Part shown: piece by piece, positions 2 through 3,081 of the stretch
Position numbering within the stretch: the stretch's first letter is position 1
Layout: the number at the start of each line of letters is the position of its first letter
DNA from: Escherichia coli
Lineage (GTDB): Bacteria > Pseudomonadota > Gammaproteobacteria > Enterobacterales > Enterobacteriaceae
Length of the DNA stretch: 5,545 nt
Reading direction: 5' to 3' (one strand)
Assembly (NCBI RefSeq): GCF_003334385.1
Contig: NZ_QOWN01000081.1
Made by a program: the position numbers and the translations under genes
The notes under the pieces: generated by a model
Seen by the model: only the letters and a program-made list of their open reading frames with translations
Databases searched by the model: none
Told to the model about the DNA's origin: nothing

Positions 2-77
2 TGGTGGGTCGTGCAGGATTCGAACCTGCGACCAATTGATTAAAAGTCAACTGCTCTACCAACTGAGCTAACGACCC
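2..77 (-). tRNA. lysV: tRNA-Lys (anticodon UUU), 76 nt including encoded 3' CCA
   Basis: Reverse complement of 2..77 reads GGGTCGTTAGCTCAGTTGGTAGAGCAGTTGACTTTTAATCAATTGGTCGCAGGTTCGAATCCTGCACGACCCACCA. This gives a cloverleaf with anticodon loop CUUUUAA (anticodon UUU), a T-arm GGTTCGAATCC and a terminal CCA. It matches the E. coli tRNA-Lys sequence as I recall it. Position in the Val-Lys operon beside gltX suggests lysV. Confidence 0.93.
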
Positions 78-80
78 GAG

Positions 81-156
81 TGGTGGGTGATGACGGGATC
101 GAACCGCCGACCCCCTCCTTGTAAGGGAGGTGCTCTCCCAGCTGAGCTAATCACCC
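81..156 (-). tRNA. valU: tRNA-Val (anticodon UAC), 76 nt including encoded 3' CCA
   Basis: Reverse complement of 81..156 reads GGGTGATTAGCTCAGCTGGGAGAGCACCTCCCTTACAAGGAGGGGGTCGGCGGTTCGATCCCGTCATCACCCACCA. The anticodon stem-loop is CCUCC-CUUACAA-GGAGG (anticodon UAC), with T-arm GGTTCGATCC and terminal CCA. Only 3 bp (78..80) separate it from tRNA-Lys. The symbol is uncertain: it is the promoter-proximal copy (valU position) but also the copy directly abutting lysV (valY position in K-12 as I recall). Confidence 0.92.
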
Positions 157-414: not shown

Positions 415-1830
415 ATGAAAATCAAAACTCGCTTCGCGCCAAGCCCAACAGGCTATCTGCACGTTGGCGGCGCGCGTACTGCTCTTTACTCCTGGCTTTT
501 TGCACGTAACCACGGCGGTGAGTTCGTGCTGCGTATTGAAGACACCGATCTTGAGCGTTCCACGCCGGAAGCTATCGAAGCCATTATGGATGGCATGAAC
601 TGGCTGAGCCTGGAGTGGGATGAAGGTCCGTACTACCAGACCAAACGTTTTGATCGCTACAACGCGGTGATCGATCAGATGCTGGAAGAGGGCACTGCTT
701 ATAAATGCTATTGCTCTAAAGAGCGCCTGGAAGCGCTGCGCGAAGAGCAAATGGCGAAAGGTGAGAAGCCGCGTTATGACGGTCGCTGCCGCCACAGCCA
801 TGAGCATCATGCTGATGATGAACCGTGTGTTGTACGTTTTGCTAACCCGCAGGAAGGTTCTGTTGTTTTTGACGATCAGATCCGTGGTCCGATCGAGTTC
901 AGCAACCAGGAACTGGACGATCTTATTATCCGCCGTACCGATGGTTCCCCAACCTATAACTTCTGTGTGGTTGTCGATGACTGGGATATGGAAATCACCC
1001 ACGTTATCCGTGGCGAAGACCATATCAACAACACGCCACGCCAGATCAACATTCTTAAGGCCCTGAAAGCGCCGGTGCCGGTTTACGCGCACGTTTCTAT
1101 GATCAATGGCGATGACGGTAAAAAACTGTCCAAACGTCACGGGGCAGTCAGCGTAATGCAGTATCGTGATGACGGTTATTTGCCAGAAGCACTGCTGAAC
1201 TATCTGGTGCGTCTGGGCTGGTCCCACGGCGATCAGGAAATCTTCACTCGTGAAGAGATGATCAAATACTTCACTTTGAATGCCGTCAGCAAATCTGCCA
1301 GTGCGTTCAACACCGACAAGCTGCTGTGGCTGAACCATCACTACATTAACGCGCTGCCGCCGGAGTATGTTGCTACTCACTTACAGTGGCACATTGAGCA
1401 GGAAAATATCGATACCCGTAACGGCCCGCAGCTGGCTGATCTGGTGAAACTGCTGGGCGAACGCTGCAAGACGCTGAAAGAGATGGCACAGAGCTGCCGT
1501 TATTTCTACGAAGATTTTGCTGAGTTCGATGCCGACGCCGCGAAAAAACATCTGCGTCCGGTAGCGCGTCAGCCGCTGGAAGTGGTTCGTGACAAACTGG
1601 CCGCGATTACTGACTGGACCGCTGAAAACGTTCATCACGCTATTCAGGCGACGGCGGATGAGCTGGAAGTGGGTATGGGTAAAGTTGGTATGCCGCTGCG
1701 TGTCGCCGTAACCGGTGCGGGGCAGTCTCCAGCACTGGATGTTACCGTTCACGCAATTGGTAAGACCCGCAGTATCGAGCGTATCAACAAAGCGCTGGAT
1801 TTTATTGCTGAACGCGAAAATCAGCAGTAA
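415..1830 (+). CDS. gltX: glutamyl-tRNA synthetase (GluRS), class I aminoacyl-tRNA synthetase, 471 aa
   Basis: A 471-codon ORF with ATG at 415 and a Shine-Dalgarno AAGG 7 nt upstream. The translation carries the class I HIGH-type motif (HVGG, codons 16-19) and a KMSKS-type motif (KLSKR). A Cys-x-Cys-x24-Cys-x-His zinc-binding signature (C98, C100, C125, H127; nt 706..795) is present, as expected for E. coli GluRS. Length and N-terminus ([19 protein letters not shown]) match E. coli GltX as I recall. Confidence 0.97.
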
Positions 1831-1847: not shown

Positions 1848-1881
1848 AAACGGCAGGAGATAATATCCTGCCGTTTTTTAT
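1848..1881. terminator. bidirectional intrinsic terminator between convergent gltX and yfeD
   Basis: A perfect 7-bp GC-rich stem, CGGCAGG (1851..1857) pairing with CCTGCCG (1867..1873), encloses a 9-nt loop. It is preceded by an A-tract (1848..1850) and followed by TTTTTT (1874..1879), so either strand sees a hairpin followed by a U-tract. It sits between the gltX stop (1830) and the yfeD stop (1882). Confidence 0.75.
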
Positions 1882-2274
1882 TTATGCTGATTCGTCAATA
1901 TCGAGACGGGCGAGGAAATTGCGAATTCCTTCACGTGACAAAAATTGCGCGACTTTTTCCTGCTCAATGTCTGTCATATTATCTATCGCGTTGATGATTT
2001 GTCGATACGCCGGGGCGCGTGCTCCAGGAGCGTATTCAGCAATTCTCTCTTCAGCTTCCATCAACATTGGTGTGTTATGGAAGGCTGGCGTGTTCTGAAT
2101 AAACTCGCAAACTTGCGTATCGACCAGAATAAGTCTGGCACGACCGCCTTTCACGCCGGGAAATTTTTCCGTTTTCCAGCCTTTTTCTCTGATCCAACGG
2201 TTAACAGTTTGTTTAGCCACACCGAGGCATTCAGCCAGTTCTTCGGTGGTCATTTTATTGCGTAATCTTTTCAT
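1882..2274 (-). CDS. yfeD: small putative DNA-binding protein (helix-turn-helix, YfeC/YfeD family, DUF1323-like), 130 aa
   Basis: A 130-codon ORF on the minus strand. Its N-terminal roughly 55 residues (MTTEELAECLGVAKQTVNRWIREKGWKTEKFPGVKGGRARLILV) look like a helix-turn-helix and are clearly paralogous to the adjacent upstream ORF. The start lies 1 nt after the yfeC stop, suggesting translational coupling. There is no obvious Shine-Dalgarno; an alternative start is at M8. Confidence 0.85.
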   Translation of the reverse strand: MKRLRNKMTTEELAECLGVAKQTVNRWIREKGWKTEKFPGVKGGRARLILVDTQVCEFIQNTPAFHNTPMLMEAEERIAEYAPGARAPAYRQIINAIDNMTDIEQEKVAQFLSREGIRNFLARLDIDESA

Positions 2275-2275
2275 A

Positions 2276-2635
2276 TTATTTGCTATCGCGAATCCCTAAG
2301 CGTTGTAACAATCCGATAATCCCTTCCCGCAGAAGCAAGGATGTAAACTGTTTTTGTTCAACTGGCGTCATCTCTTTCGCCAGTGTCACCAGCAATACTT
2401 CAAGCGGCGCATCACCAGAAAGGGCAGGCGCTTCTCCCTGACCTTCTGGACGTTCAGCATTGCGAATATATTCACGAACCTGTTCATTGACGTGAACCAG
2501 TCGGGCTTTGCCACCCTGGACGCCAGGTTTTGGTGACGTTGTCCAGCCTTCCTTGCGTACCCATTTATTAATGGTCTGGCGGCTATAGCCGGTCAGTCTG
2601 GCAAGTTCATCTGGTGTCATCCTCTCCTTGAACAT
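2276..2635 (-). CDS. yfeC: small putative DNA-binding protein (helix-turn-helix, YfeC/YfeD family, DUF1323-like), 119 aa (114 aa if it starts at M6)
   Basis: A 119-codon ORF on the minus strand with a Shine-Dalgarno AGGGA 6 nt upstream of the ATG at 2635. An alternative start at M6 (2620) is preceded by AAGGAG at short spacing. The N-terminus (MTPDELARLTGYSRQTINKWVRKEGWTTSPKPGVQGGKARLVHV) is paralogous to YfeD. Confidence 0.85.
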   Translation of the reverse strand: MFKERMTPDELARLTGYSRQTINKWVRKEGWTTSPKPGVQGGKARLVHVNEQVREYIRNAERPEGQGEAPALSGDAPLEVLLVTLAKEMTPVEQKQFTSLLLREGIIGLLQRLGIRDSK

Positions 2636-2794
2636 AACAATTCCCTGAATGTATGTGGGTCTATTAGTAGTTCATTTTATAACACCACTTTACAGGAAAC
2701 CGTGACATGAATAACTACTGAATGCGAGCGGTTTTCCAAAATTGTTCATTTGCCTGATTTTTCAGCGATTGAAACTACACGTTGCAATTTGCCG

Positions 2795-2970: not shown

Positions 2971-3046
<76 letters not shown>

Positions 3047-3055
3047 AATTTCCAA

Positions 3056-3081
3056 CCCTCGCTGCAAAGCGGGGGTTTTTT
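3056..3081 (+). terminator. intrinsic terminator of the alaW-alaX operon
   Basis: Stem CCCTCGC (3056..3062) pairs with GCGGGGG (3069..3075) over 7 bp, including one G-U pair, around a 6-nt loop TGCAAA. It is followed by TTTTTT (3076..3081) and sits 10 nt after the alaX CCA. Confidence 0.8.

Follow-up and report, generated by a model that had tools for sequence, protein, structure and literature searches.

Two of the systems closest to the proteins treated here come from phage Mu, namely the I-alpha domain of the transposase MuA (1tns) and the Mu c repressor (1qpm/1g4d). Further points of comparison are proteins of the excisionase/AlpA type (Pukovnik Xis, 4j2n; TorI; Tn916 Xis), the effector-less MerR-like winged helices BldC, RacA and pSK1 Par, which multimerise on DNA, and the canonical MerR regulators, in which a long antiparallel coiled coil follows the wing and an effector-binding domain is present. 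Here we analyse the genes yfeC and yfeD (yfeCD) of Escherichia coli, which occupy positions 1882 to 2635 on the minus strand of a stretch of 5,545 nucleotides from contig NZ_QOWN01000081.1 (RefSeq assembly GCF_003334385.1); this whole stretch is referred to as the window. yfeCD is already known, as annotations of both genes exist throughout the E. coli genomes, their family is represented in Pfam and genome-wide binding maps of both proteins are published. Based on the open reading frames, their paralogy, family, fold, junction, synteny and rate asymmetry, and on binding sites, a transcriptome and an extracellular DNA phenotype taken from the literature, we read the region, with a probability of roughly 0.8, as an operon of two paralogous YfeC-like regulators, co-transcribed and translationally coupled, of which YfeC is mostly a repressor and which arose by a duplication beside gltX.

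Compared with the systems named above, YfeC and YfeD share with the two Mu proteins a homologous stretch of 45 N-terminal residues including the wing motif GW..(R/K)..GVKGGKA, and with the Mu c repressor the succession of a winged helix and helical segments. Unlike MuA and the c repressor, however, they are chromosomally encoded proteins of 119 and 130 amino acids, which lack the C-terminal transposase or repressor regions, have no Mu-like genes nearby and act on DNA targets that are unrelated, as far as known. They differ from the excisionase/AlpA proteins in having no partner integrase, in carrying an extra C-terminal hairpin and in being core genes. The likeness to BldC, RacA and pSK1 Par is one of fold, with a sequence identity of only 9–21%, and no sign of cooperative, filament-like binding, of a centromere function or of chromosome anchoring was seen for YfeC or YfeD. 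With the canonical MerR regulators they have in common an N-terminal winged helix of the same superfamily, but the wing is followed by a disordered linker instead of the coiled coil, and there is no effector-binding domain.

A pair of paralogous winged-helix proteins

A first-pass annotation, made from the letters of the window only, had described two adjacent minus-strand open reading frames (ORFs) of 119 and 130 amino acids separated by a single nucleotide, and its coordinates are exact. yfeC (2276..2635, minus strand, 119 amino acids) runs from the ATG at 2635 to the stop codon TAA at 2276..2278, yfeD (1882..2274, minus strand, 130 amino acids) begins with the ATG at 2272..2274, and the one nucleotide between them is the T at 2275. 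The gene names proposed at that stage are borne out by the RefSeq annotation and by the family match given below. In K-12, the two proteins carry the identifiers b2398 (YfeC) and b2399 (YfeD), and RefSeq names YfeC a "DNA-binding transcriptional dual regulator" and assigns YfeD to the MerR family. Of 5426 complete E. coli genomes, all contain both genes, annotated under these names. Positions 1700-2900 of the window are 100% identical to K-12-type strains, with the yfeCD region showing no difference at all.

The paralogy of the two proteins was assessed by alignment and shuffling. BLASTP aligns YfeC and YfeD with an E-value of 3e-27 and 48 identities in 127 positions (38%), and the Smith-Waterman score of 207 compares with a mean of 27, a standard deviation of 4.7 and a maximum of 52 in 1000 shuffles (z = 38), which rules out similarity at chance level, the outcome set beforehand as speaking against a duplicated pair. 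For the N-terminal halves, judged by eye to be about half identical, the alignment gives 28 identical residues of 57 (49%). The C-terminal tails taken alone score 66, at a shuffle mean of 17.7 and a maximum of 36. Both motifs noticed at first sight are seen in either protein, i.e., W-x-R-x-x-G-W-x-T-x-x-x-P-G-V-x-G-G-[KR]-A-R-L in the N-terminal part and M-T-x-x-E-Q ... L-x-R-E-G-I ... L-x-R-L in the tail.

A profile search, suggested from the outset for DUF1323 or a winged helix of the MerR/excisionase type, returned full-length matches to PF07037, formerly DUF1323 and now "Transcription regulator YfeC-like", with an excisionase/MerR-like winged helix. The E-values are 4.5e-51 for YfeC and 1.1e-63 for YfeD, and model positions 1-122 of 122 are covered in both cases. 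Among 28 family members, the near-invariant columns are M6, E10, L11, A12, G16, Q20, T21, N23, W25, W31, G38, G41, G42, A44, E93, R103 and G105. The family is small; among 1.84 billion representative proteins, only 81 clusters (50% identity) matched, many of them fragments, and the named members of the family belong to the Enterobacteriaceae, plus a few Yersiniaceae and Erwiniaceae.

The other Pfam matches are weak generic helix-turn-helix (HTH) models covering the first 30 residues. YfeD matches HTH_17 with an E-value of 4.9e-7, and MerR_1 reaches 0.24-0.32 for the two proteins. The excisionase DNA-binding domain model TIGR01764 gave 27.7 bits for YfeD and 18.7 bits for YfeC, both under the curated cut-off of 28.8. 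In PHROGs, the similarity was weak and concerned excisionases, terminase small subunits and DNA-binding proteins of phages. Three assignments were rejected. The MerR HTH model, the coiled coil and the effector domain that mark a canonical MerR regulator were not found in YfeC or YfeD, and the term "MerR family", as used for YfeD in RefSeq, applies at the superfamily level only. A published table (PMC4797297) places both proteins among uncharacterised LysR-family factors; this entry is a misplacement, because both LysR domains, PF00126 (HTH_1) and PF03466, are absent and the proteins, with 119 and 130 instead of about 300 amino acids, have one third of the size. Finally, a role in defence was discarded, since the PADLOC matches (mad1 HTH, E-value ~1e-5) span the generic HTH only.

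The fold was predicted with AlphaFold2 from a 28-member alignment of YfeC (mean predicted local distance difference test score, pLDDT, 82). Residues 1-60 (2456..2635, minus strand) form a winged helix-turn-helix consisting of a strand, helix 8-15, helix 19-29, a wing at 33-48 and helix 51-60. The wing is a beta-hairpin carrying PGVQGGKARL, and the motif G-V-x-G-G-[KR]-A within it is invariant in both proteins. A disordered, poorly conserved linker (residues 61-77; pLDDT <50 at residues 63-68) leads to a C-terminal helical hairpin of helices 78-87 and 91-112 (2300..2404, minus strand; pLDDT 89-92). YfeD was modelled as the second part of a fused chain, described further below, in which it shows the same order of secondary structure elements as YfeC. 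Its winged helix-turn-helix comprises residues 1-62 (2089..2274, minus strand), in line with the HTH_17 match, and its helical hairpin residues 88-123 (1906..2013, minus strand; helices 232-242 and 246-267 of the fusion). The monomer prediction that had been called for thus yields a DNA-binding fold; lack of such a fold had been named as a finding that would speak against the proposed function. The C-terminal hairpin would most likely mediate self-association, so that dimers could read inverted-repeat sites.

Among structural relatives, the tabulated values are 6.9 for Pukovnik Xis, 6.4 for pSK1 Par, 6.0 for BldC, 5.3 for RacA, about 4-6 for MarR and MerR proteins and 4.9 for the Mu repressor (24% identity). 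The YfeC family profile matched the enhancer-binding I-alpha domain of MuA (1tns) with an E-value of 7.2e-6 (29.6 bits) and the Mu c repressor domain (1g4d) with 0.031. When single sequences were compared with PDB sequences, YfeC matched the Mu domain with 0.01, and no match was obtained for YfeD. The Pfam model PF02316 is marginal for YfeC (0.048), is not listed for YfeD and matches the orthologue of Chimaeribacter faintly. UniRef labels orthologues "HTH Mu-type domain-containing protein", and the first match outside the YfeC-like family in a search of AFDB50 is a Mu-like c repressor. A search of the viral structures in BFVD gave generic HTH matches only (E-value >1e-3) and no close viral relative. 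Judged by sequence statistics, the N-terminal domain of YfeC and YfeD is tied to the DNA-binding domain of the phage Mu transposase and repressor.

Synteny and duplication history

The locus was searched for in species-representative genomes, where 226 matching stretches were obtained; the counts given here rest on the best 80 of the 226, all of which are from Enterobacteriaceae. A second YfeC-like gene lies directly downstream of the yfeC orthologue in 80 of 80 loci, at a spacing of −20 to +19 nt. This spacing is exactly 1 nt in 51 loci, and 5 have an ATGA overlap. gltX is convergent downstream in most of the 80 loci, and a tRNA-Ala(GGC) gene is divergent upstream in 78. The phylogenetic profiling proposed along with the original observation therefore shows a pair that co-occurs throughout and mostly stays beside gltX and tRNA-Ala. 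In Cedecea, the pair is 47 nt apart. Two Silvania species (loci L032 and L034) have lost the usual stop codon, and yfeC overlaps yfeD by 20 nt; Enterobacter sp. BIGb0383 (locus L051, 6366-7138) has three YfeC-like genes in tandem, one yfeC and two yfeD-like.

A single YfeC-like copy convergent with gltX was detected in two loci, one from Chimaeribacter (Yersiniaceae) and one from an uncultured relative. Since these single-copy loci also sit convergent with gltX, the duplication is old and chromosomal, not mobile. The Chimaeribacter copy has no adjacent tRNA gene; the yfeCD locus predates the tRNA genes beside it. With Chimaeribacter as the root, the upstream (yfeC) genes are monophyletic in a neighbour-joining tree. 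From the sequences we infer that a gene already located beside gltX was duplicated once, in tandem, at the base of the Enterobacteriaceae. The base composition of the pair (GC 0.44-0.49) is close to that of the neighbouring genes and gives no signal of foreign origin, and the first-pass statement that hallmarks of mobile elements are lacking also holds, given the absence of integrase and repeats, the conserved synteny and the position of the single-copy loci next to gltX.

After the duplication, the two copies evolved at asymmetric rates, with the upstream copy conserved and the downstream copy diverged. The mean pairwise identity between orthologues is 74% for yfeC vs. 53% for yfeD over the whole protein and 88% vs. 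65% in the N-terminal domain. The linker is at about 27% in both, and the hairpin of YfeC at 75%. Accounting for this in one scheme, a single gene beside gltX would have been duplicated in tandem, after which the upstream copy would have stayed conserved and the downstream copy, yfeD, would have become the faster-evolving paralogue.

A disrupted copy of yfeC occurs in the duck isolate E. coli BL12 (NZ_CP079780.1), in which an insertion of the IS903B family splits the gene and two "YfeC-like" fragments are annotated. Because of this insertion, natural loss of yfeC can be regarded as tolerated.

Expression signals and published binding data

The junction of the two genes reads TAA-T-ATG (2272..2278, minus strand), and the 20 nt that precede the ATG of yfeD contain no Shine-Dalgarno-like sequence. 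Since yfeD has no Shine-Dalgarno sequence and the junction is conserved, its translation is probably coupled to that of yfeC by termination-reinitiation. Ribosomes terminating at the yfeC stop codon would start translation of yfeD, and as the yfeD start would be fed by these ribosomes, the output of YfeD would be tied to the translation of YfeC.

Transcription of yfeCD would start some 40 nt before yfeC, at a sigma-70 promoter of the extended −10 type, and end at a hairpin common to yfeCD and gltX. A strict sigma-70 consensus scan found the alaW promoter and none for yfeC, so the promoter call rests on comparative conservation. The probable extended −10 element TGtTATAAA (2676..2684, minus strand) lies 40 nt upstream of the ATG at 2635, with no good −35 element present, and of 23 upstream regions aligned across diverse genera, 22 keep TG-n-TATAA. 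At the other end, a bidirectional intrinsic terminator (1848..1876, both strands) has a stem of 11 pairs, 6 of them G-C, with T-runs on either strand, and is shared by gltX and yfeCD. The earlier claim that the pair forms one operon thereby gains support from a junction kept in 80 of 80 species, a conserved candidate promoter upstream and a common terminator at the end. Inside yfeD, a promoter-like TCGACA-16-GATAAT (1976-2005, minus strand) has 10 of 12 matches; the total of such sites is within chance expectation. In the Rfam scan of the window, only four tRNAs were detected and no known small RNA or leader in or around yfeCD.

Further upstream, the alignment of 23 regions contains the conserved blocks TTTC (2696-2699), GTCAC (2702-2706) and CTCGCA (2723-2728) within 2696..2738 (minus strand). 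In many genera, the last of these is part of a palindrome, TGCGAG-N4-CTCGCA, located between the divergent alaW and yfeC promoters (e.g., loci L021, L030, L037 and L042, further L047, L055, L068 and L073). Escherichia, Citrobacter and Salmonella keep only its right arm, and the left arm of E. coli is degenerate (TGGAAA, 2733-2738). The palindrome and the blocks are a candidate operator.

Two starts of yfeC are in use, the ATG at 2635 chosen by the Prokaryotic Genome Annotation Pipeline (PGAP; 119 amino acids) and an in-frame ATG at 2620 in the curated K-12 annotation (114 amino acids), and both ATGs are conserved. Among some 70 different orthologous sequences, M-[FIL]-K-E-R is retained in the five additional codons, with AGG, CGG, CGA, AGA or CGT as the Arg codon. 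The longer start is favoured, because Lys-Glu-Arg is kept while the Arg codon changes synonymously. On the other hand, the sequence AAGGA within the extra codons could equally be the ribosome-binding site of the inner ATG at 2620.

The first-pass remark that targets and function of the pair are not well established is outdated, as the binding sites of both proteins and the transcriptome of a yfeC deletion have been published (PMC8464067). Using chromatin immunoprecipitation with exonuclease treatment (ChIP-exo), Gao et al. (2021; PMC8464067) listed 50 site rows for YfeC and 43 for YfeD, both proteins being C-terminally 8-myc tagged. The YfeC motif is a TTC-rich inverted repeat with 6-nt spacing, and 40% of the YfeC sites are intragenic (PMC8464067). 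In the yfeC deletion, 205 genes changed; 20 were direct targets, of which 16 were repressed, including rpmH, rpmB, rpsU, lpp and "yfeCD" (PMC8464067). Expression of yfeD rose by 4.3 log2 (20-fold), and the authors list "yfeCD" as a direct target, while ybaQ fell by 5.2 log2 (36-fold) and has a YfeD ChIP-exo site with a signal-to-noise ratio of 29.7 (PMC8464067). The baseMean of yfeC in these data is 55. According to an earlier report cited in the same paper, the release of extracellular DNA is increased in a yfeC mutant. In E. coli K1, a strain mutated in yfeC colonised the small intestine of neonatal rats more poorly (PMC5847654), and in enterohaemorrhagic E. coli a yfeC deletion left LEE1 expression unaffected. 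A 2025 preprint on CRISPRa/i still terms yfeC "partially characterised". To call the pair the least-understood content of the window remains fair, as its physiological role is still vague.

Taken with the locus, these data are consistent with a scheme in which YfeC would mostly repress a few dozen scattered promoters and its own operon, and YfeD would bind a largely different set of sites. The two ChIP-exo lists have one common site (3332954), in the 5′ part of sfsB (nlp; NC_000913.3 3334932-3334961). The gene sfsB encodes a Ner-like protein, a homologue of phage Mu Ner. A peak of another factor, YciT, lies about 70 bp from this common site, and the sfsB region may simply be sticky. Scanning the window with TTC-N6-GAA, which is an approximation and not the published motif matrix, gave one match inside gltX, i.e., at chance level.

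Several points weigh against a reading in which YfeC represses its own operon and a defined regulon. The published dataset uses NC_000913.2 coordinates, as verified on the rpmH and sfsB sites, and its peak assigned to "yfeC" (2516052-2516085) was placed in the window with an offset to NC_000913.3 that we assume to be +1978; the NC_000913.3 position equals 2521087 minus the window position, the window being reversed with respect to MG1655. The peak falls at 3024..3057 and covers the 3′ end of alaX together with the first part of the alaX terminator. No other ChIP-exo peak is near the operon, and this one lies about 400 bp from the yfeC start and off the putative promoter. Highly transcribed tRNA genes are typical false-positive regions in ChIP experiments, and the alaX peak may reflect either an artefact of a hyper-ChIPable tRNA gene or genuine binding at a distance. 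Likewise, the 20-fold rise of yfeD could be an effect of the deletion construct and not of a loss of autorepression. Sites of YfeC recur with other tagged factors, at 3889534 with YdhB and in the 33329xx region with YciT, and as many sites recur and 40% are intragenic, part of the YfeC "regulon" may be noise. In addition, the 8-myc tag was attached to the hairpin that would mediate dimerisation, and in the case of yfeC it falls on the coupling junction as well. Beyond these points, the published "YfeC regulon" is probably confounded, since yfeD is 20-fold up in the yfeC deletion and a YfeD site is located at ybaQ.

The genes flanking yfeCD are gltX (415-1830, plus strand), which is convergent, and on the other side alaW and alaX (2856-2931 and 2971-3046, plus strand), two identical tRNA-Ala(GGC) copies 39 nt apart, beyond which pdeA follows in window order. 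The tRNA-Ala pair is driven by the near-consensus alaW promoter TTGACA-17-TATGAT (2795-2823) and ends at a 10-pair terminator hairpin (3054-3077). Upstream of the alaW promoter, an A-tract block, CGCTGAAAAA on the yfeC strand, is conserved. A tRNA-Lys gene (2-77, minus strand) and a tRNA-Val gene (81-156, minus strand) lie at the beginning of the window. Here a single tRNA-Val(UAC) gene directly precedes tRNA-Lys(UUU), and MG1655 has valU-valX-valY-lysV with three Val genes; the window and MG1655 otherwise do not differ. The best E. coli matches to the full window reach 99.9% identity; they have two Val genes and 121 bp extra. Strain AS19-RrmA- is the only contiguous single-piece match to the tRNA-array stretch among the top-listed matches. 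The copy number of tRNA-Val varies by recombination between the identical tRNA genes.

Competing explanations and implications

Among the alternatives, the one that survives best, though we consider it unlikely, is that an obligate YfeC-YfeD heterodimer or hetero-oligomer is the DNA-binding species, with the coupled genes fixing the proportion of the subunits. In all 80 species, the two genes have stayed side by side (−20 to +19 nt), and the C-terminal hairpin motif MT..EQ...L.REGI..L.RL is kept in both proteins. Translational coupling is, moreover, common for subunits of one complex. However, the ChIP-exo lists share one site only of 50 and 43 rows, which argues against an obligate heterodimer on DNA, although the tags on the hairpin make this a weak test. 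For a structural check, YfeC, a Gly-Ser linker of 25 residues and YfeD were fused and modelled with AlphaFold2 from 34 paired orthologue rows, which is not a true multimer prediction. This fused chain showed no confident packing of YfeC against YfeD, reached a predicted template modelling score (pTM) of 0.33 and a mean pLDDT of 68, and the pLDDT of the hairpin dropped from about 90 to 73-79, a linker fusion again being a weak test. Two loci, one of them in Chimaeribacter, function with one copy, and one Enterobacter species has three. The published model of YfeC is a homodimer (PMC8464067). The original suggestion of a possible heterodimer thus has no positive evidence in its favour after two tests, both weak, and we lean towards separate homodimers of YfeC and YfeD.

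It is more doubtful still that YfeC and YfeD, instead of being promoter-specific regulators, are architectural or nucleoid-associated proteins in the manner of BldC, RacA and pSK1 Par and use their C-terminal helices for cooperative binding to many weak sites. These three proteins are among the best structural matches, no ligand-binding domain is present, and the intragenic share of the YfeC sites (40%), targets without a common function and effects extending over 205 genes would fit such a role. Nevertheless, at most 50 sites are few for a nucleoid protein, a discrete inverted-repeat motif is reported (PMC8464067), and the abundance looks low, at a baseMean of 55 for yfeC.

We regard it as very improbable that the pair is a remnant of a mobile element beside tRNA genes, i.e., an excisionase (recombination directionality factor) or a Mu-like repressor without a function for the host. 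The homology of the N-terminal domain to the Mu transposase and repressor domains, its resemblance to excisionases and terminase small subunits, the score of YfeD just below the TIGR01764 cut-off and the flanking tRNA genes point in this direction. On the other side, neither an integrase nor direct repeats nor other phage genes were found in the window, and no integrase in the 80 related loci; the synteny with gltX is conserved in the Enterobacteriaceae and in both single-copy loci, and the one in Chimaeribacter has no adjacent tRNA gene. Both genes are under purifying selection, as seen in the YfeC N-terminal domain with its 88% identity across genera, the GC content is near that of the neighbours, and no close viral structural homologue was detected. 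A mobile origin would be at most an ancient domestication of a Mu-type domain.

Finally, the type II toxin-antitoxin module that RASTA-Bacteria predicts here (PMC2374986), a label taken up again in a transposon-directed insertion-site sequencing (TraDIS) study of E. coli K1 (PMC5847654), can be dismissed despite small, adjacent, coupled genes, one with an HTH, and a high RASTA score, because YfeC and YfeD are paralogues that share one fold, so that neither is a toxin, no toxin family was matched in the Pfam, NCBIfam and PADLOC searches, strains deleted for yfeC are viable in spite of a 20-fold higher level of yfeD mRNA, related lineages have a single copy in the same place, and the genes hold a fixed chromosomal position in all 5426 complete E. 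coli genomes.

An operon of two paralogous regulators, YfeC being mostly a repressor, remains the preferred reading. A speculative extension of it, to which we assign little probability, is a locus-bound two-tier circuit derived from a Mu-like repressor module, in which YfeC would throttle the operon and, through the coupling, YfeD, and the faster-evolving YfeD would carry much of the "YfeC regulon", the fall of ybaQ in the yfeC deletion being an example. In this view, the YfeC-family gene would have become fixed beside gltX in the lineages covered (80 Enterobacteriaceae species and the two single-copy loci) and would have been duplicated later. Because of the YfeC peak on alaX, such a circuit might perhaps also act on the neighbouring stable-RNA and gltX units.

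What this analysis adds to the known operon is modest. It comprises a duplication inferred at the base of the Enterobacteriaceae, an older partnership with gltX, asymmetric rates of the two copies and the tie to the Mu domain. With respect to published data, it points to overexpression of yfeD as a confounding factor in the yfeC-deletion transcriptome, places the "autoregulatory" peak on a tRNA gene and favours the 119-amino-acid start of yfeC. These additions are useful for finding the physiological role of a regulator pair which is so far only vaguely understood.

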